A stretch of 64,000 nucleotides of DNA from an uncultured Chloroflexia bacterium (lineage in GTDB: Bacteria > Chloroflexota > Limnocylindria > Limnocylindrales > CSP1-4), in the NCBI GenBank assembly GCA_963707215.1, contig CAVPPB010000003.1, forward strand, positions 1,632,001-1,696,000, written 5' to 3'. This document shows positions 13,079 through 22,613 of this stretch, in pieces. The notes beneath the pieces were generated by a model. It made no database searches. It was not told the origin of the DNA and saw only the letters and a program-made list of their open reading frames with translations. A program made the translations under genes and the position numbers. The stretch's first letter is position 1; the number at the start of each line of letters is the position of its first letter.

Positions 13079-14405
13079 TCAGGGCGCCAGGTCAGGCGGG
13101 GGCACCAGCACCCCGGACTCCACGGGCTGGAAGTTCGAAGGATCGATGTCGGCGAGATCGACCCCTCCGAGCCACCCGGCGCAGTCGGTTCCCGCCGCCT
13201 TGGGATCGGAGATCCAGATCCCGATCCGCTGGGGGGAGCCGTCCTTGACGATGACCGCCGACCAGTCGCCGGCACGCTCGCCTGAGACCGTGGTCTGCTC
13301 GGTCGTGCCGCTGAGGGCCCAGGTGTCGCCGTCCCGGGCGGCACACTCCAGCCGGACGGTGTGGGTGCCTGCCTCGAAGGTCGTGACGGCCGTGCCGGAC
13401 ACGCTCGCGCCATCGGCGACGGCGTCGACCTCCGTCGTGGCGGCGGCTCCATCGAGCTGGTACTCCACGGTGCCGCCGAGAGCGCTGCCGAACGTCGTCG
13501 ACTCGGCGATCGACCGCATCTCCTCGACGAGGTCCGCTGGAGTGTCGAGGCGGTACATCGCATCGATCACCAAGAAGGCGCCGTCGACGTCCACGATCCA
13601 GAGCGCATCGATCTGGCCTGGGCCCTGGTGGTAGCGCGCCAGGGCGATCCTCCCCGGTCGCGAAGCTGACGAACTCGCCCTCTTCGCACCCATCGGGCGC
13701 GGCGTCAGCCGGCACGTGGAGGGTGATCGACTGGCCCGCGTTGCCGTCGACCGTCACATCGACCGGCTCCGTGGCATCCCGTGATGCCTGCTCCGCGAGA
13801 GCGGCCGCGAACTCTTCGATCGTCGTGGCGGGAGTGGCCGGCCTGGTCGATGTCACCTGGCAGGGATCCCCTGTGCACGTAGAAGCTCGTACCGGCGGGA
13901 TATGCCCAGAGAAAGCCTCGTGGCCTCAGGCAGATTGTCCAGGCCTCGTCGTCCTTCACACGGGCTGAAGTCGCGGAAACGGTCCATCCGGGATCCGATG
14001 GTGACCGTGACCTGCACCGATCTTCGTCGGTGGAGACGACGACCGGGCCTTCGGGAAGGCCGGCTGCGAAGCCGACGGCGCGGCTGATGGCGCTCGCGTA
14101 GGGGCCGGCGCGGACGAGGGCGAGGGCGATGAAGCGCCACCGATTCCGTCGGGCGCTGGGGCACCCAGGAACTGGACGCCGACGACGAGGGCAACGGCCA
14201 CGCCGGCGGCGCCGAGGCCGATGGGGACGAACTTGTTCATGGTTCTCCGTAGTCTCTCTGGGAGCGTGCGCCAACCGCCCTGCTGCCTGGTCGCCCGCGT
14301 GCGTTCGAACGTCGCACGCAGGACGCGATCGGACAGCCGACCCGGGGCTTCCGCCTCGAGCCAATCGCTGATCCGTTCCTCGAGCTGGCGGTCGGTAGGC
14401 ATCAC
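13079..14405 (-). pseudogene. Membrane-anchored anti-sigma-like protein broken by several frameshifts
   Basis: Overlaps the ECF stop (GTGA). Protein-like text is split across ORFs 13956-14405, 13705-14460, 13853-14194, 13092-13856 and 13079-13693. Indels cluster at about 13650-14070. Confidence 0.6.
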
Positions 14406-14953
14406 GCAGTCCTGTCCTGGGCGACCGCCGGCTGCCGCGCGTCGGCCTCGAGCGCCGCACGCATCGCCTCGGTCGCGTAGTGAAGTCGTGATCTGGCGGT
14501 CCCCTCGGGGATGCCGAGCATCCGCGCGATCTCGGCCGACGAGAAGCCGCTGTAGTAGTGGAGGACGACCACCGCCCGTTGCTCGGGCTTCAGTCGACTG
14601 AATCCCCGCTCCAGCTGTTCGCGGTCAGCGACGGCACCGGTGTCATCGCCGACCGAGGTGTCGAGCGGCAGTGGCCGCACCTGGTTCGACCAGCGCCGCA
14701 GCTGTCGGCCCTGGTCTGCACAGGCGTTGACCACCAGGCGATAGAGCCAGGCGTCGAACCGATCCGGATCGCGCAGCGAGGGAAGCTGCCGCCACGCGCG
14801 AACCAGCGCTTCCTGCACCGCGTCCTCCGCCAGGTCGGACGACCGGAGGATCAGGCGAGCGACCGCGTACAGGCGATCGCCGGCGGAGGTCGCGAGGACT
14901 TCGAATGCCTCATGGTCTCCCTGGCGGGCCGCCTCTACGAGATCTCGCCTCAT
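14402..14953 (-). CDS. ECF RNA polymerase sigma factor
   Basis: AEDAVQEALVRAW, FDAWLYRLVVN, EIARMLGIPEGTARSRLHYA; GGAGA RBS. Confidence 0.93.
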   Translation of the reverse strand: MRRDLVEAARQGDHEAFEVLATSAGDRLYAVARLILRSSDLAEDAVQEALVRAWRQLPSLRDPDRFDAWLYRLVVNACADQGRQLRRWSNQVRPLPLDTSVGDDTGAVADREQLERGFSRLKPEQRAVVVLHYYSGFSSAEIARMLGIPEGTARSRLHYATEAMRAALEADARQPAVAQDRTA

Positions 14954-14995
14954 CCGTTCTCCATCACCAGCACGGTCCATCGTCGTCCCGTGTGC

Positions 14996-15211: not shown

Positions 15212-15287
15212 GCGCCTGTAGCTCAGCGGATAGAGCGTCGGCCTCCGGAGCCGAAGGTCGCAGGTTCGAATCCTGTCGGGCGCGCCA
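15212..15287 (+). tRNA. tRNA-Arg(CCG)
   Basis: GCGCCTGTAGCTCAGCGGATAGAGCG TCGGC CTCCGGA GCCGA..GGTTCGAATCC..CGGGCGCGCCA. Confidence 0.97.
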
Positions 15288-15621
15288 TTGCAACCTTTTC
15301 GGGCAGCGCCAACGCCAATCCGTGCGCGTAGGCCGACTGCGTCAGCCGGACAGCCACGATCTCGGGCCCGGCGCTCGTGATCCGGTCGTAGATGGCGTGC
15401 ATCAGGTCTGCCTTCTCCTTCGGTACATCTGCCTGCTGGATCGACGCGGCGAGGGCATGCAGCCACTCGATCGCTCGCTGCGCGGGGACGCCGGTATCCG
15501 CGCCGTCCGCGATCGCGCCCCGCGCCTGGCGGAGCGCCTTGAGCCGGGCGAGGTACGTGTCGTCGCCCAGGGTGCCCGCGGCGTGCTCGAGGGCGAGCTC
15601 GCGGATCCGCCGGTCGCACAT
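15223..15621 (-). pseudogene. C-terminal remnant of a probable large serine recombinase, reading antisense into the tRNA
   Basis: Coiled-coil-like RIRELALEHAAGTLGDDTYLARLKALRQ and terminal EKADLMHAIYDRIT block; no catalytic domain upstream; family assignment inferred from style and att geometry. Confidence 0.65.
15272..15293 (+). repeat. att direct repeat, tRNA-proximal copy
   Basis: Identical to 19525-19546. Confidence 0.9.
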
Positions 15622-15909
15622 GACGAGGGCGACGCCGGCGGGATGCAGGCCGTCCTCCAGGAGCTCGAGGGTCCGCCGGAGGTTGCGCTGCCCGTGCCCT
15701 CGTGGCGATGGCCGCTCGTCGTGTCCAGGAGGGTCGCCTGCAGGTTCTCGATGTCGGTGCCTGTCGCTCGCGGGCCGCGCTCGCGGGACCTGCGGCCGAC
15801 AGCGGCCACGCCCGCGCTCCGCTCAGCGTCGAGCGCGAGGCAAGAGTCCCGACGGAGCGCCCTCAAGGCAAACTCGATTGCGCTCCCGGGTTGGTGCGGC
15901 CGAAACGCG

Positions 15910-15946
15910 GCGGGGCGGGGCACACAGATGGCGTGCCCCGCCCCGC
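15910..15946 (-). terminator. Hairpin downstream of the DUF1269-like gene
   Basis: GCGGGGCGGGGCAC-N9-GTGCCCCGCCCCGC, 14-bp stem. Confidence 0.7.
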
Positions 15947-15959
15947 GATCGTGGTGCTG

Positions 15960-16580
15960 TCAGCCGGCCTGCTTGGCGGCCTCCTTGATGGACTTCGCGG
16001 AGGCGTCGGAGACGCCGGCGCTGCGGACCTTGGTGGCCGCCGGCATGGCCTTCTTGACCGCGTCGACATCGGACGCTTCGACGAGCGCGAGGATGCCGGA
16101 CTGGTTGGGCCCAAGGGCTCCGGCCAGGGCGCCGCCCACTTCGGACTTGTGGAGCTCGTTGCGGAGCTTGCCGAGCACGCCACCGACCGCACCCCAGGCG
16201 ACGGTGCTGGCGATGATGCTGGGCGGGAAGATGATGCCGAGCACGAGCCCGCCAACGGCGCCCCACTTGACGCCCGTCTTGGTGGCGTGGTCGGTCATCT
16301 TCTGGATGTGGACCTTGCTGTCCGCGTCGGTCTTGATGACAAGGACGCCGTCAACCGTGGCCTGGCCGGCCGTCTCCGCGTCCTGCAGGGCCTGGTACGC
16401 CGCCATGGCTGCCGTATCGTCGGCAAACGCCGCAACCACCACGGCGTAGTCGTAGTCGGTCACAACGGCACCGACCGCCTGAGCACCGGAGTCATCGCCG
16501 ATGGCGCCCACCACAGTGGCGCCGGTGTCGTCGGCCTCTGCGGCCACCACTGCGTCCTGAGCCCCCTGGTCGTCTGTCAT
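15960..16580 (-). CDS. DUF1269-like glycine-zipper membrane protein
   Basis: GVKWGAVGGLVLGIIFPP..GAVGGVLGKL..LGPNQSGILAL. Confidence 0.7.
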   Translation of the reverse strand: MTDDQGAQDAVVAAEADDTGATVVGAIGDDSGAQAVGAVVTDYDYAVVVAAFADDTAAMAAYQALQDAETAGQATVDGVLVIKTDADSKVHIQKMTDHATKTGVKWGAVGGLVLGIIFPPSIIASTVAWGAVGGVLGKLRNELHKSEVGGALAGALGPNQSGILALVEASDVDAVKKAMPAATKVRSAGVSDASAKSIKEAAKQAG

Positions 16581-16933
16581 AGGTGGTACCCCAATCTGCG
16601 TCCATTCCCGCGAAGACCGGGTGCGGACGCCCGACCCGGCCGAAGGACGGTACCCGATATCCCGCTGGGACGCGACCAATGGCACTGTTGCGACGATGAC
16701 CCTCGCCCGAGCGCAGCTCCGCGGTCCGCGCGAGCCCGATCAGCTGCGGGGTCCCGAGAGTGGCCCGGCGGCGGAACCCTTCCGCCGGTGAACCGAGAGC
16801 GGCAGCGCGCTCAGAGGTCCTCGACGTTCCCCAGGCCGATCGAGCGCATCTGGGAGAAGACCGCGGCCACGGCCATGTGGCGATCCTCGAACTGGCGTCA
16901 CAGTCCCACGGGCCCTCGTGCGAGCATCGCGGC

Positions 16934-17713
16934 GTGATCCACGACCCTCTCCAACGGGCAGCCCAAGGCCCGCTGACCATCCGGCTGATCCTTCACGAAG
17001 CCCTGGCCATGTTCCGCCTCGGCTACCTGCGGGTGGCCCTGGTGGCCCTGCTCCTGTTCGTGCCGCCCGCGGTCCTGGCCGTGCTGCTCGAGGGGATCAC
17101 GGAGGAGCAGCTGGACCTGCCATTCGGCGGCGGGGTGTTGCTCGCGATGGCGATCGGGGGCCTGTTCCGCCTGTTCGGCCCGGTCGTCTTCGCCGGCTAC
17201 CTCGACGAGGCTGTGGGCAGCGAGTACTTCAAGGGTCATCGCCAACGGCTGCCGGAAGTGCTGCGGTCGCTGCCCTGGGTCTCGCTCCTCGTGGCCGACG
17301 TGATCGTGGTCGTAGGGGCGTCCATCGGACTCGCGCTGATGGTGATCCCCGGGATCGCCTTCTACGCGGCCTTCGGGCTGATCGGTCCGGTCATGGTCCA
17401 GGAGCGTCGCGGGATCCTTCCGTCCTTCGGGCGCACGCTGCAGATCAGCCGGACCGCCGTGATCCCGGTCGTCCTCCTGGTCATCGTGCCGCTGGCGGCC
17501 GAGCAGGTGATCCACGAGGCCGCCTACCGCGCGGTGCACGAGGAGGCGGTCCTGGTCCGGATCCTCGCGGAATGGCTGGTCGCGGCCATCGTCGGTGGTG
17601 CCGTTGGCCTGCTGGAGGTTGCGCTCGCCACGGAGCTCATGGCGCGCAACCCGATGCCGGCGGTCCAGCCCGACTCGGCAGTCGCCGGCGCCGAGCGGGA
17701 GCGATCCGCCTAG
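16934..17713 (+). CDS. Hypothetical multi-pass membrane protein (start uncertain: 16934 or 17009)
   Basis: About 6 hydrophobic segments, GLALMVIPGI..P.MVQERRG; coding-like GC3. Confidence 0.65.
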   Translation: MIHDPLQRAAQGPLTIRLILHEALAMFRLGYLRVALVALLLFVPPAVLAVLLEGITEEQLDLPFGGGVLLAMAIGGLFRLFGPVVFAGYLDEAVGSEYFKGHRQRLPEVLRSLPWVSLLVADVIVVVGASIGLALMVIPGIAFYAAFGLIGPVMVQERRGILPSFGRTLQISRTAVIPVVLLVIVPLAAEQVIHEAAYRAVHEEAVLVRILAEWLVAAIVGGAVGLLEVALATELMARNPMPAVQPDSAVAGAERERSA

Positions 17714-17743
17714 CTCGCGAGGCCGGCGGATACCCGCCGCGGG

Positions 17744-19105
17744 TCACCGGGCGTCGGCGGCCACCCGTCCGTCCGCGATCGCTGTCTTGAGCGCGCCATA
17801 GTCGAGATCGTTCTGGTTCGCATACGCCTCGGCGAAGTCCGCGACCGCGCCATCGAACGTGTCGCTGTTGCCGAGGTAGCCGGCGATCAGGGCCGGCTCA
17901 CCGGAACGTGCATGAGCCCGGGCGAGGGTCCAGCCGCAGGCCTTGGCGTAGCGGACAAGTCCAGGGGGATCGAGCCGGGCAACGTCGACGCCCACCTTCC
18001 AGTCGCGCATCTGGCGGACGTAGAACGCCGGCTGTCCGGATGCTCCCAGCCAGCCGAGGAAGATGTCGCTGGCCGCCTGCATCACACGCTGGCCCTGCAC
18101 CACCCGCTCCCCGGGCCAGCGGAACTCGCTCCTATCGAGAAACTGCTCGAGGACGGATGCCTGCGCTTCCTTCACCTGCAGGACGAGGAGGTCATGGTCC
18201 GTACGACCCCGCATCAGCACGATGAACGCGCGAAGCCCGACGCTCCCGACGCCGACCACCTTGTGGGCGATGTCGAGGACCTGGTAGCGGTCGAGCAGCC
18301 GCCGGCGCTCGAGCGGGAGCGTCCTGCGGTAGAGGCGCGTCGCCTTCTCGACCGTGTCCTTGAGATCCTCCTGGTCCACGCCCGGCAGCTCGCCCAGCCG
18401 GTAGAGCAGCGGTGGCTGATTGCGGAGCCGCAGGGTGCCCTGCACGCGTTCCGTCAGCTTGCCGATGGGGCGCAGGGGGTCCTCGGTGGTCACGTGACGG
18501 ACCCCTTCGGCGAAGCCCTTGCGTTGGGCCTTTGGAAGAGCAGCCTGCATCGCCGAGCTGGTGAGGCGCGCGTACCAGGTCGTGAGGTACGGATCAGCTG
18601 CGAACCGGCTCATCGCCGACCGGTAGGTGGTGACCAGCGCCAGCACGCTCCTCCGGTCGTCCCCGGATGTGAAGCCATTGCTCCGGCCTGCGATGACGAA
18701 GCTCGCCGCGAGCCGCTTGACGTCCCACTCGAAGGGCCCTGGGAGCGTCTCGTCGAAATCGTTGACGTCGAAGACGAGGTTCCGCTCCGGCGTCGCGTAT
18801 CCGCCGAAGTTGACGAGGTGCGCGTCGCCGCAGAGCTGGGCGCGGATGCCCGTTGCCGGTAGCGTCGCGAGGTCCTCCGCCATGATCGCCGCTGCGCCGC
18901 GGTAGAAGGCGAACGCCGACTCGGACATGCGGCTGTACCGAATGGGCACGAGCGCGGTGACCCTCGTGGCTGCCTGCGCCTCGAGGATCGCGACGGGATT
19001 CCTCCGGCTGTCCGGCGGCGACCAGGCAGCGTGCGCCGACCTGGGGACCCGCTGACGCCGCTCACGACCTTGGTCGAGCTCGCCCTGGGTGGTGTTGCCT
19101 GCCAT
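17744..19105 (-). CDS. DUF2252 family protein (kinase-like fold)
   Basis: LVPIRYSRM..FAFYRG, CGDAHLVNFG, FDVNDFDET, KVVGVGSVG, FYVRQMRDWK. Confidence 0.92.
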   Translation of the reverse strand: MAGNTTQGELDQGRERRQRVPRSAHAAWSPPDSRRNPVAILEAQAATRVTALVPIRYSRMSESAFAFYRGAAAIMAEDLATLPATGIRAQLCGDAHLVNFGGYATPERNLVFDVNDFDETLPGPFEWDVKRLAASFVIAGRSNGFTSGDDRRSVLALVTTYRSAMSRFAADPYLTTWYARLTSSAMQAALPKAQRKGFAEGVRHVTTEDPLRPIGKLTERVQGTLRLRNQPPLLYRLGELPGVDQEDLKDTVEKATRLYRRTLPLERRRLLDRYQVLDIAHKVVGVGSVGLRAFIVLMRGRTDHDLLVLQVKEAQASVLEQFLDRSEFRWPGERVVQGQRVMQAASDIFLGWLGASGQPAFYVRQMRDWKVGVDVARLDPPGLVRYAKACGWTLARAHARSGEPALIAGYLGNSDTFDGAVADFAEAYANQNDLDYGALKTAIADGRVAADAR

Positions 19106-19194
19106 GCTCCCCATCTCCCGTTGCGGCCCGTCGCCCGTGGCGCCGTCCCTGGCGGCGCCGAGTCGACCGCGCCATTGTGGGCGCCGCTCAGCCG

Positions 19195-19446
19195 TCAGGA
19201 CAGCCCGAGTGTCCGCTCGGGCTCCGGCAGTCGCGGCGCAAGGATCCACACCAGCTGCGCCATGGTCGCAGCCCCGACCTTCGTCCGCGCATTCGCGAGG
19301 TGGTGCTTGACGGTCGAGTGGGACAGCCCGAGGCGATGAGCAGCGGCCTTCTCTGAGCCCGTGGCGAGCACCGCGGCGACCACCCCGACCTCACGGTCTG
19401 TGGCTCGCCCTGTAGTGCTCCGAGCGGCCGGAGTACGCGCACTCAC
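19195..19446 (-). CDS. Small LuxR/GerE-type HTH protein
   Basis: TDREVGVV..EKAAAHRLGLSHSTVKHHLANARTKVG; GTG 19446 overlaps TGA of the att-derived frame. Confidence 0.75.
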   Translation of the reverse strand: MSARTPAARSTTGRATDREVGVVAAVLATGSEKAAAHRLGLSHSTVKHHLANARTKVGAATMAQLVWILAPRLPEPERTLGLS

Positions 19447-19524
19447 GCCAGCCGCCGCGCGGCCGCGAGCCACTCATCCCGCCCCTCGATCGGGATCTCG
19501 TAGGTAGCTAACGCGCGCCCAACA

Positions 19525-19546
19525 CCTGTCGGGCGCGCCATTGCAA
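19525..19546 (+). repeat. att direct repeat, distal copy (displaced tRNA 3' end)
   Basis: Identical to 15272-15293; embedded in inverted repeat GCGCGCCCAACA-CC-TGTCGGGCGCGC. Confidence 0.9.
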
Positions 19547-20750: not shown

Positions 20751-20990
20751 TCAAGAAGGCGTCAACCACTCCGTGATGTCACCCGCTGACGGCAGGCGGC
20801 CCGTGCTCACGACCTTGCCGTCGATGACGAGCCCGGGGGTGCTCATGACACCGCGGCTCGCAATCTCGGCGTAGTCGGTGACCTTGACGATCTCCGCTTC
20901 GACGCCGGCCTGCGCGACCGCCTCGCGGACGTTTGCCTCGAGCCGCTGGCAGTTGTTGCAGCCGGGTCCGAGGACCTCGATGACCTTCAC
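20751..20990 (-). CDS. Small redox-active disulfide protein (Thioredoxin_3/MTH895-like)
   Basis: IEVLGPGCNNC..GVMSTPGLVIDG. Confidence 0.9.
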   Translation of the reverse strand: MKVIEVLGPGCNNCQRLEANVREAVAQAGVEAEIVKVTDYAEIASRGVMSTPGLVIDGKVVSTGRLPSAGDITEWLTPS

Positions 20991-21247
20991 GGGTGGACCT
21001 CCTTGGGTGTCGTGAGCCAGGCGGCGACCTCCCGCCGGCTCGGGACCCGGCCGGCCGCGACGACCGTGCCGTCGACGACGAGGGCCGGGGTTCGCATGAA
21101 GAAGCCGCGGCCGACGATCTCAGCCGGATCGGTGACGTAGCGAGCATCGATGTCGAGGCAGGCGCTGCGCGTCACGTCGCGCACGAGCTCGAGCAGCTCC
21201 GAGCAGCGCCGGCAGCCTGGACCGATGACCTCGACGATCCGCTCCAT
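20987..21247 (-). CDS. Second small redox-active disulfide protein
   Basis: MERIVEVIGPGCRRC..MRTPALVVDG (3' part of ORF 20987-22555). Confidence 0.85.
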   Translation of the reverse strand: MERIVEVIGPGCRRCSELLELVRDVTRSACLDIDARYVTDPAEIVGRGFFMRTPALVVDGTVVAAGRVPSRREVAAWLTTPKEVHP

Positions 21248-22287
21248 CACGCGGCCAGCCAGTTGAACAGGTAGCCGATCGCAACGATGCCGACGGCGAC
21301 GATGCTGGCGAAGGCGACGAGCAGGCGCGGCTTCATGACTTTGCGCAGGATCACCACCTCGGGCAGCGAGAGGGCGGTGATCGCCATCATGAACGCGAGC
21401 GCCGAGCCGACCGGGAGGCCCTTGCCAAGGAGGGCTTCGATGACCGGGATCGTGCCTGCGGCGTTGCTGTACAGCGGCACGCCGAGGATGACGAGCGCCG
21501 GGACCGCGAGCGGGTTGCCGGGGCCGCCGATCTGGACGACGAGCTCGGTCGGCACGAAGCCGTGGATGAAGGCGCCGATCCCGATGCCGACGATCACGTA
21601 GGGCCACACCCGGCCGACGATGTCGCGCGTTGAGCGCCACGCCTCGCGGACGCGGTCCTCGAGCGTGGTGTGCTCGTCGATCGTCACGCCGCCCGCCCGG
21701 ACCTTCCAGACATAGTCCTCGACGTAGCGCTCGAGGCCAAGGCGCCCGATGAGCAGGCCCGCGACGATCGCGACGACGAGGCCCGCGGCCATGTAGGCGA
21801 GCGTGAGCTGCGGGCCGACAAGGCCCCACAGGAGCACGATCGCCACTTCGTTGACCATCGGTGAGGCGATGAGAAACGCGAACGTGACCCCGAGCGGCAC
21901 CCCCGCCTCGAGGAACCCGATGAAGAGCGGGACAGCTGAGCACGAGCAGAACGGGGTGACGACGCCGAAGCCGGCGGCCGCGACCGTCCCGGGGACAGCG
22001 CCCCGGCCAGCGAGGGCACGCCGCACCCGCTCGGGCGACACGAACGAGCGCAGGAACGAGATGAGGGTGACGATGCCGGTCAGCAGCAGCAGGACCTTGG
22101 GCACGTCGTACAGGAAGAACGCAACCGCCTCCCCGAGCGGTGATCCATGCTCGAGCCCGAGCACGTCGAAGGCCAGCCAGTTCGCCGCGGGCAGGGCGAG
22201 GAACCACGCCACGAGCCAGAGCGTGGTGCCCGCGAGGACGACGACCCAGAGCGGCGGATGGATCTGGCGGACAACCAGGATCGTCAT
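21247..22287 (-). CDS. arsP: ArsP/DUF318 family permease
   Basis: VTPFCSCSAVPLF, SPMVNE, PLYSNAAG, ALSLPE. Confidence 0.85.
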   Translation of the reverse strand: MTILVVRQIHPPLWVVVLAGTTLWLVAWFLALPAANWLAFDVLGLEHGSPLGEAVAFFLYDVPKVLLLLTGIVTLISFLRSFVSPERVRRALAGRGAVPGTVAAAGFGVVTPFCSCSAVPLFIGFLEAGVPLGVTFAFLIASPMVNEVAIVLLWGLVGPQLTLAYMAAGLVVAIVAGLLIGRLGLERYVEDYVWKVRAGGVTIDEHTTLEDRVREAWRSTRDIVGRVWPYVIVGIGIGAFIHGFVPTELVVQIGGPGNPLAVPALVILGVPLYSNAAGTIPVIEALLGKGLPVGSALAFMMAITALSLPEVVILRKVMKPRLLVAFASIVAVGIVAIGYLFNWLAA

Positions 22288-22613
22288 CGCAGGACGTCGT
22301 CGATTGCAGCGCGCGCCGTCGCGATCGCCGGCTCGATCCGCTCGTAGTAGAGGAACCGCGCGTTCGCATCGTGGCGGCTCGCGCGCACCAGGCCAGCGTC
22401 GCGGAGCTTCGCGAGGTGGTTGCTGACGGCGTTGTCGCGCATCTCGAGCGCTGCCGCCATCTCGCACACGCACACCGGCCCGTCCGCAAGCATCCGCAGG
22501 ATCGCGGCGCGGGTCGGGTCGGCGAGCAGGGCCGCGGCCGCGACGGCCGCGCCAACGTCGGGTGCCTGCATGTCGAGGCGCGGGACGCACACGACGGGGA
22601 GCACGGTGGTCAT
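22284..22613 (-). CDS. arsR: ArsR/SmtB family repressor
   Basis: LADPTRAAIL..PVCVCEM..VSNHLAKLRDAGLV. Confidence 0.88.
   Translation of the reverse strand: MTTVLPVVCVPRLDMQAPDVGAAVAAAALLADPTRAAILRMLADGPVCVCEMAAALEMRDNAVSNHLAKLRDAGLVRASRHDANARFLYYERIEPAIATARAAIDDVLR

Follow-up and report, generated by a model that had tools for sequence, protein, structure and literature searches.

A decayed tRNA-Arg island in a Chloroflexota genome points to a family of serine integrases that recombine within their own gene

Introduction

The subject of this study is a 64,000-nucleotide stretch of contig CAVPPB010000003.1 from an uncultured Chloroflexia bacterium of the order Limnocylindrales, referred to as the window throughout, in which an exact 22-bp direct repeat bounds an island at a gene for tRNA-Arg(CCG) and a recombinase-like reading frame crosses the repeat and runs antisense into the tRNA gene. 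This raises the question of what kind of element left such an arrangement behind and what recombination inside the 3' end of a recombinase gene would mean for the enzyme and for the gene next to it. A sequence-only reading of the locus had proposed a recombination-state switch, in which excision exchanges the C-terminus of the recombinase and couples its gene to that of a small helix-turn-helix (HTH) protein. It had located the tRNA-Arg, the exact repeat with its copies 4.25 kb apart, the frame reading AMARPTG, the in-frame tail, and the GTGA overlap with a GerE-type HTH gene correctly throughout. Based on the comparison with relatives presented here, we consider it probable that the island is the decayed remnant of an integrative element and that the serine integrase of the live family recombines inside its own gene, thereby swapping its C-terminal tail and its operon link. 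The architecture of the proposed switch stands for the family; a live switch in the window does not, its integrase being a pseudogene in an assembly in which no Resolvase-domain gene was found.

A recombinase fragment and its full-length relatives

On the minus strand of the window, the open reading frame (ORF) 15621-15223 crosses the proximal repeat as AMARPTG and ends in ...EKVAMARPTGFEPATFGSGGRRSIR with its stop at 15223-15225, the antisense passage through the tRNA reading FEPATFGSGGRRSIR. The open frame in total spans 15822-15226 (199 aa). Scans of this fragment gave no match in Pfam and NCBIfam and a single weak family of unknown function in PHROGs (E=0.025), so that its identity as an integrase was recognized only from full-length relatives. 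The full-length integrase of one of these (genome G188) is alignable to the window by tblastn only with its residues 95-123 (15690-15604) and 362-500 (15642-15226), both in one frame. The 15223-15621 peptide, for which the sequence-only reading had named a match to recombinase C-termini as a check, aligns within the latter part. Residues 1-94, including the catalytic serine, are undetectable in the window copy and residues 124-361 are also gone. Judged by its sequence, this copy is a pseudogene, a fossil in a decayed and immobile island remnant (15272-19546); because ~340 of 500 codons are lost, including the catalytic, recombinase, and zinc-ribbon parts, no switching occurs in this window. 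Likewise, a match to Resolvase (PF00239) was found nowhere in the assembly, which is 84.8% complete.

A six-frame search with the window frame across 201 genomes of the same order gave matches in 160 of them, a raw count that does not represent the prevalence of the element, with weak matches covering little beyond the tRNA-antisense residues and including all 28 from a small-genome family; the best match reached E<=1e-12 in ~86 genomes (hand count). Approximately 27 of the 150 matches listed lie in open frames of >=480 codons (hand count), and the nine full-length frames that were read start with a resolvase-type N-terminus and end in ...ARPTGFEPATFGSGGRRSIH/R. Among 1.84 billion representative proteins, 2077 relatives were detected at E<=0.001 and 194 at E<=1e-30. 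The full-length G188 relative matches Pfam Resolvase PF00239 (E=1.8e-10, 41.5 bits, cut-off 23.3) and, weakly and under the cut-off of 21.1, Recombinase PF07508 (E=0.0015, 19.2 bits). Within an alignment of 42 sequences, S23 is nearly invariant and the zinc-ligand positions C292, C294, H313, and C317 are invariant.

A sequence search of solved-structure chains with a 512-aa integrase of the family returned nothing at E<=0.001, and a comparison of folds was therefore needed. The AlphaFold model of this 512-aa member (mean predicted local distance difference test score, pLDDT, of 92.5) retrieved 9dxh, phiC31, and Bxb1 by Foldseek at E values of 2.4e-15 to 3e-13, a range extending to ~4e-08 if the Listeria enzyme is included. 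VIA-align gave Z scores of 16.5 to 9dxh_A (386 residues, root mean square deviation 16.4) and 14.1 to Bxb1 9iu2_A, with model residues 7-468 aligned. Sequence motifs and predicted fold together place the family among the large serine recombinases of ~500 aa, having a resolvase catalytic domain followed by a recombinase and zinc-ribbon architecture. Elements of this family are common in relatives recorded as Candidatus Limnocylindrales or Chloroflexota.

Attachment sites within the integrase gene

The proximal 22-mer of the window (15272-15293) consists of the last 16 nt of tRNA-Arg(CCG) and 6 further nt, and its exact second copy is located at 19525-19546. A third copy was absent from the window even with up to three mismatches allowed, none of 100 shuffles gave a match, and within the whole assembly the 22-mer occurs at only two places with up to 2 mismatches allowed. 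A pattern in which the shared arm is followed by GG and the first part of the distal arm was found at ~100 places in 55 of the 201 genomes, and at none in a reversed control. Based on shuffles and reversed control, a chance origin of the repeat was rejected.

The target of the family was examined in two sets of loci. The first comprised the window and 20 stretches fetched upstream of integrase matches; in 13 of the 21 (window included), the integrase gene overlies an antisense tRNA-Arg(CCG) with its 3' end, and in two more a tRNA-Arg(TCT). The second set, obtained with a single-protein query, comprised 78 loci in records named Candidatus Limnocylindrales, Chloroflexi/Chloroflexota, and the like. 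In this set, 49 integrase frames terminate on tRNA-Arg (43 CCG, 5 TCG, 1 TCT), all of them passing the core in the same register into the tRNA, while 13 continue into the native tail described below (12 counted by script and L174 added by hand from the class "other"), 7 run off a contig end, and 9 are otherwise broken. With 49 of 78 loci ending in the tRNA and 13 of 78 being joined, the claim that attP lies in the 3' end of the recombinase gene and that integration swaps its C-terminus holds for the family.

Alignment of the junctions in the integrase sense revealed a common sequence at both element ends to the left of a GG dinucleotide; to its right follows either the T-arm of the tRNA or an inverted repeat of the left arm. 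The attP site accordingly comprises two 23-nt arms about GG (48 bp), which in the phage contig G201 agree at 19 of 23 positions and in the window at 18 of 23 (hand comparison). The GG is located inside a glycine codon, ~26 codons ahead of the natural stop, and the direct repeat stops exactly there because GG forms the centre of the palindromic attP. Presumably, this dinucleotide is the crossover point, as the symmetry of the palindrome suggests. The direct repeat measures 22 bp in the window, 23 bp in the prophage of G202, and 17 bp in G188.

An empty target site was sought in five integrase-free relatives, and a window-type sequence was not found at the loci inspected: two have a tRNA-Arg(CCG) of different T-stem and acceptor, and the loci from the other three hold other tRNA-Arg isoacceptors only. 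These loci consequently did not define the ancestral chromosome-side arm of the window lineage. In loci L100 and L101 from two integrase-free relatives (G089, G048), the T-stem and acceptor of tRNA-Arg(CCG) read ...GAGTCCCGCCG... in place of ...GAATCCTGTCG..., and the expected recognition site of the integrase is consequently not conserved across genera. As a separate observation, the 6-7 nt past the CCA end of the tRNA are also identical at both element ends, reading TTGCAA in the window (15288-15293, 19541-19546) and TTGAAA at the G202 junctions (L090, L092). This identity is element-specific, yet equal on both arms; either the far-end arm is itself an old element arm or the element arm tracks the host flank.

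The C-terminal tail and the gene coupled to it

Read on the minus strand, the distal repeat of the window gives AMARPTG followed by VGRALATYEIPIEGRDEWLAAARRLA, and the minus strand from 19547 to 19192 translates as FAMARPTGVGRALATYEIPIEGRDEWLAAARRLA*, with a TGA stop at 19445-19443. The sequence upstream of the distal repeat (in the integrase sense) is not integrase-like in the window. Among 35 distinct junctions, 23 have a tail of 31-32 codons counted from ARPTG, and 12 are frameshifted, read through, or truncated. The ratio of nonsynonymous to synonymous substitutions (dN/dS; pairwise Nei-Gojobori) across the 14 codons beyond the attP arm in 25 unique intact tails was 0.20, compared with 1.65 and 3.24 in the other frames, a descriptive value and not a test since the 25 tails were picked as intact and are mutually related. 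Variation in this part falls on third positions of the tail frame. Within the eight codons of the attP arm the ratio was 0.73 and the other frames were no cleaner, as expected if DNA recognition constrains the arm sequence. This substitution pattern indicates that the 26-aa distal tail is under purifying selection.

Conservation on the protein level extends to a distant set of 42 listed representatives of >=440 residues. At least 13 of them terminate with one or another tRNA-antisense peptide (GLEPPT, GIEPAT, GFEPPT), and at least 10 carry a C-terminal tail matching [IV]PIxGRxEWL...[ST]A, at 33-54% identity to the query and with different att-coded residues. As the motif recurs at this distance with other att cores, the tail is conserved as protein sequence even where the target changes.

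In the model of the tailed enzyme, an att-coded loop (block pLDDT 69) is placed between the strands 477-481 and 490-494, the second strand (block pLDDT 94) being followed by a terminal helix at 500-511 (block pLDDT 80). The model of the integrated G188 enzyme shows no secondary structure for residues 484-500 (pLDDT <50), and strand 477-481 is also lost. Solved integrases align no further than model residues 462-473, where their own chains finish; thus, the last ~40 residues represent a clade-specific extension, the second half of which is removed by integration. According to these models, the canonical enzyme is complete without the extension, and the tail may act as a regulatory element or a degron, or may be a neutral appendage.

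The tail is in turn linked to the next gene. In the window, a GTG at 19446 (19446-19444) overlaps the TGA of the tail and opens an 83-codon frame matching Pfam GerE (E=7.3e-07, 29.2 bits, cut-off 23.5). An overlap of tail stop and next start as ATGA or GTGA was found for all 23 proper-length tails and for 11 of 13 in the second set. At L051, the ATG of ATGA is the first canonical start in frame, and the overlapping start is accordingly more plausible than a GTG located further upstream (19473). The 25 unique intact tails (window included) are followed by an HTH gene of the window type in ten cases and by a second or third HTH type in eight, by degraded copies still starting with MRGGYLRG or similar in three, and by something else in four. 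The three HTH types form one family (15 sequences aligned as A3, 12 invariant columns), and the proteins have generic GerE/LysR-type HTH matches only. The sequence-only reading had suggested that the HTH protein may serve as a directionality factor or regulator and the tail as a degradation signal. In a G180-like subclade (L109, L111; tails ending ...VKSA or ...AKSA), the ATGA-coupled gene is ParB-like instead and begins MT..L.V.Q..IDQLRPDP.NPRRIS, showing that the overlap is conserved even with a different partner gene. A predicted complex of the C-terminal 298 integrase residues with the cognate HTH protein scored 0.20 and 0.10 against a mark of 0.32, values that speak neither for nor against an interaction. 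The sequence-only reading was borne out in its expectation that relatives conserve both the distal tail and the overlap; its HTH gene is the usual coupled partner, with the ParB-like subclade as a deviation from it.

Split and joined states of the element

The search for intact elements in relatives, which the sequence-only reading had suggested, delivered both states; the fragmentary condition of the window's own copy had escaped that reading. The split form is represented by G202, a viral-collection record in which an intact 500-aa integrase lies on tRNA-Arg(CCG) and a second core follows at a distance of 43.3 kb. At this far end, the tail (...EWEAAARVRSA) is followed by the HTH gene with a GTGA overlap. 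Between the two ends lie genes for a primase/helicase, methyltransferases, a ParB-like nuclease, and a sigma factor. Intact family members include 43-kb tailed prophages.

The joined form is found in G201, which encodes a small and a large terminase and in which the 3' part of the integrase gene, tail, ATGA, and HTH gene are contiguous without any tRNA. Its contig G201:C1 (41.7 kb; L088, L089), classed as linear by IMG/VR, starts at integrase residue 214 and ends in integrase residues 1-75, leaving ~140 residues missing. A further joined locus, G180:C127, encodes an intact 512-aa integrase with tail. In addition, a tail directly preceded by an integrase 3' end occurs inside chromosomes at 12 of the 35 junctions. 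Contigs of hundreds of kilobases hold several of the 13 joined loci, and the 8.7-kb element of G188 with its intact integrase abuts a joined remnant. The earlier statement that only the excised circle has the tail and the operon was therefore too strong. We read the chromosomal joined junctions as tandem arrays. An occupied site keeps ~20 bp of the target arm, which the element arm copies, and a second element could consequently insert there.

A second remnant was noticed in the genome of the window itself (L002, G000:C3:1275370-1278477; locus coordinates 1432-2072), a 3.1-kb locus without tRNA. There, an 84-codon frame runs from an HTH-gene fragment into the last ~30 integrase residues, the att core, and the intact tail, after which a full HTH gene follows with a GTGA overlap. 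L002 looks like the deletion product of a tandem array.

Proposed mechanism and alternatives

According to the mechanism that we propose, the element would recombine with tRNA-Arg(CCG) at its T-arm and acceptor end and rebuild the tRNA from the last 16 nt that it carries. As a consequence of integration, the integrase would read antisense into the tRNA and gain ~15 foreign residues, and the 26-aa tail together with the next gene (usually the ~80-aa HTH gene) would end up at the opposite border of the element. Only a junction of the integrase-side arm with the distal arm would provide the native tail and the integrase-HTH operon, i.e., in a free circle or where copies meet within a tandem array. 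Such a swap may alter the regulation or stability of the enzyme, and the coupled gene may be expressed together with the integrase only in the joined state.

Several points weigh against this proposal. Contigs from four sequencing runs were fragmentary, of low depth, and gave no informative joint at the att sites; the runs were checked for the 8.7-kb element of G188, the best having 0.22 of the sampled words, and all were used as contigs only. G201 could stem from a circle or concatemer that was cut open during assembly or, equally, represent a tandem array. The crossover at GG is derived from palindrome symmetry only, and just 11 of the 42 sequences aligned for the predicted fold possess the native tail, to which the descriptive character of the dN/dS value is to be added. 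Of 16 elements whose integrase gene overlies a tRNA, only 3 showed a far-end repeat, the far ends of the others not being reached in the 20-kb stretches used, which for most of them is explained by the 43-kb size of an intact prophage. Finally, the cargo in the window is not phage-like and was not found next to the integrase-tail-HTH module elsewhere.

The swap might also be a by-product, with attP happening to overlap the last integrase codons, no effect on recombination, and a tail retained for ribosome delivery or a slight stabilization, an explanation which we regard as possible though not likely. It would agree with the alignments to solved integrases ending ahead of the att-coded loop, so that the catalytic and DNA-binding core is complete without the tail, with the long intact frames and tRNA-coded ends that integrated copies retain, and with the view of McMurdie et al. 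that a function of the ssrA-overlapping part of the integrase gene dsiB in Dehalococcoides is unlikely (PMC3146451). However, the tail residues are conserved at 33-54% integrase identity next to different att cores, their dN/dS is 0.20, and their fold is predicted confidently; coupling alone would leave them unconstrained. If, on the other hand, the 31-32-codon frame were mainly an independent upstream ORF of the HTH gene, starting in the integrated state at an ATG from the antisense of the tRNA CCA end, one would expect the ATG right before ARPTG that is seen at 8 of the 23 proper-length junctions without integrase-like sequence upstream (the window among the 8), and the stop-start overlap would couple this mini-ORF to the HTH gene in the prophage too. 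This leader-peptide explanation appears very unlikely to us, given that contiguous full-length integrases continue straight into the tail, that the model packs the tail on the preceding strands with high confidence, and that the tail is retained where the downstream gene is ParB-like.

A repeat of 22 bp regenerating a tRNA 3' end is, moreover, the classic signature of a tyrosine integrase, and published serine-integrase cores measure 5-8 bp (PMC8092301), which could make the repeat the trace of a lost tyrosine enzyme and the serine recombinase fragment incidental. We give next to no credence to this origin and rejected it: a tyrosine integrase is not present, 49 of 78 integrases cross the core into tRNA-Arg in the same constant register, and the repeat ends at the centre of a 48-bp palindrome of the kind usual for attP of serine integrases.

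Returning to the reading of a serine integrase that swaps its own tail, the exchange could go further and itself constitute the directionality control, with the coupled gene reporting the excised state; we hold this extension to be doubtful. The tailed enzyme, encoded only by the circle or an array junction, would then integrate; its tRNA-tailed counterpart, encoded only by the prophage, would either be set free to excise or be kept inactive, and a classical directionality factor would not take part. Expression of the coupled HTH or ParB-like gene would be confined to the free element and thereby signal the excised state to the phage programme. Frequent tandem arrays would be explained as well, because the element arm copies ~20 bp and an occupied site thus resembles a free target.

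Serine integrases are valued in genome engineering, and their direction of recombination is strictly controlled, normally by a separate factor. A clade of these enzymes that would rewrite its own C-terminus and the link to its next gene at each recombination offers a natural and testable case of state-encoded direction or stability. On the practical side, gene callers will go on giving such integrases tRNA-derived ends and listing orphan "small ORFs" where islands end. For the window, a 4.25-kb accessory segment and a stray HTH gene are accounted for as a fossil prophage-type insertion.

Features and surroundings of the island

The features assigned within the island are compiled in Table 1. 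The content of guanine and cytosine in the island is no different from that of its flanks. The DUF2252 family is patchy and accessory, being found in 8 of 41 relatives at <=52% identity, and none of 19 other loci with such a gene adjoins an att core or an HTH gene of this type.

Table 1. Features of the tRNA-Arg island in the window, with positions, strand, and basis of assignment
Feature	Position	Strand	Basis and remarks
tRNA-Arg(CCG), integration target	15212..15287	+	ARAGORN; last 16 nt would come from the element
attL, proximal 22-bp repeat (integrase-side arm, core, tRNA arm)	15272..15293	.	Exact repeat
Putative crossover dinucleotide	15272-15273	CC on +, GG in integrase sense	Repeat end = palindromic attP centre
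Large serine recombinase pseudogene	15223..15822	-	tblastn of G188 integrase; last 15 codons antisense tRNA
DUF1269-type membrane protein, cargo	15960..16685	-	Pfam PF06897, E=1.5e-06, 28.9 bits (cut-off 26.9)
Predicted membrane protein, cargo, start uncertain	16760..17713	+	ORF list; Pfam/NCBIfam matches all sub-threshold
DUF2252 protein, cargo; true start probably later than 19249	17744..19249	-	Pfam PF10009, E=6.9e-137
Small LuxR/GerE-type HTH gene	19195..19446	-	Pfam GerE, homologues at same place in relatives
Orphaned native integrase C-terminal tail (VGRALATYEIPIEGRDEWLAAARRLA + stop)	19443..19524	-	Translation
Distal arm of attP, first 23 nt of tail	19524-19502	-	18/23 palindrome match to other arm
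attR, distal 22-bp repeat (chromosome-side arm + core)	19525..19546	.	Exact repeat

Outside the island, a gene for a sigma factor of the extracytoplasmic function type (14402-14980, minus strand; Sigma70_r2 and r4_2, E ~1e-15) is located ~230 bp upstream of the tRNA-Arg. On the other side, two paralogous small genes of thioredoxin type (20751-20990 and ~21000-21250, minus strand) both show GPGC..C near their N-termini and have a 59-nt repeat of 73% identity in common (20790-20848, 21041-21099); the pair adjoins a gene for a large membrane protein (21247-22590).

Comparison with known systems

Regarding domain order, fold, and probably also a palindromic attP of ~48 bp with a central dinucleotide, the family resembles the integrases of Bxb1, phiC31, and Listeria LI/A118. 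In contrast to these canonical systems, attP has 17-23 bp in common with the target and is located within the gene of the integrase, the tRNA target is restored, and ~40 additional residues extend the C-terminus of the enzyme; the mycobacterial serine integrases are reported to use cores of 5-8 bp and to disrupt protein genes (PMC8092301). Serine recombinases at tRNA genes have been called rare, the examples named being elements of the AICE type (actinomycete integrative and conjugative elements) in Mycobacterium at tRNA-Leu and phage phiRSM1 at tRNA-Ser (Ghinet et al. 2011, PMC3218068). They share the kind of target with our family and are set apart from it by description, as an overlap of attP and recombinase gene is not mentioned for them in the accessible text of that paper. 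The Islander working rule holds that serine integrases do not use tRNA genes (PMC4383910). The present family contradicts this rule, and island finders built on it would miss such elements.

An attP located within a gene is known from other systems, and in elements of the SSV1 type this gene is their own integrase gene. In Mx8, attP lies within int (intP) and integration provides a new 3' end by which the enzyme is altered rather than inactivated (review PMC6070905); unlike here, Mx8 Int is a tyrosine recombinase, and the accessible text of the review describes no translationally coupled downstream gene. Immunity systems of the BPs type likewise have attP in a gene whose C-terminus is set by the integration state, with C-terminal degradation tags as part of their logic, the split gene being the repressor and the integrase a tyrosine enzyme (PMC8092301). 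Here, by contrast, the integrase is split: the att core lies within its frame, ARPTG being read across the core at tRNA junction and joined junction alike. The HTH gene starts only past the att site, so that integrated and joined elements both have it in full.

The closest counterpart is found in the ssrA (transfer-messenger RNA, tmRNA) islands of Dehalococcoides, which encode a serine integrase of ~540 aa, DsiB, with a dsiB 3' end that always overlaps attL (McMurdie et al. 2011, PMC3146451). The dsiB stop lies in ssrA or in the adjacent island, and the authors suggested that the gene may be fully functional only when circularized or beside an island supplying the fragment. This corrects the assumption of the sequence-only reading that the arrangement had not been described, the overlap of dsiB with attL having been reported in 2011 together with the proposal of a full function only on the circle or beside an adjacent island. 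Both systems belong to Chloroflexota and have in common a serine integrase of ~500-540 aa whose gene overlaps attL with its 3' end, the regeneration of the 3' end of a small stable RNA, a repeat of ~20 bp, and tandem islands. They differ in the target, which is tRNA-Arg here and tmRNA there; the Dehalococcoides module is further described with a second small serine recombinase, DsiA, and DsiB itself was compared by description only. The dsiB 3' ends are divergent, and a conserved tail and coupled gene are not reported in the accessible text of that study. Nor was a conserved swapped tail or a stop-start coupling of a serine integrase found in the literature searched, mostly outside subscription journals and without supplements. 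While the core arrangement has thus been in print since 2011, the selected tail, the predicted fold of the clade-specific extension, the ATGA/GTGA coupling, and the tRNA-Arg-targeting phage clade in these Chloroflexota appear to be new.

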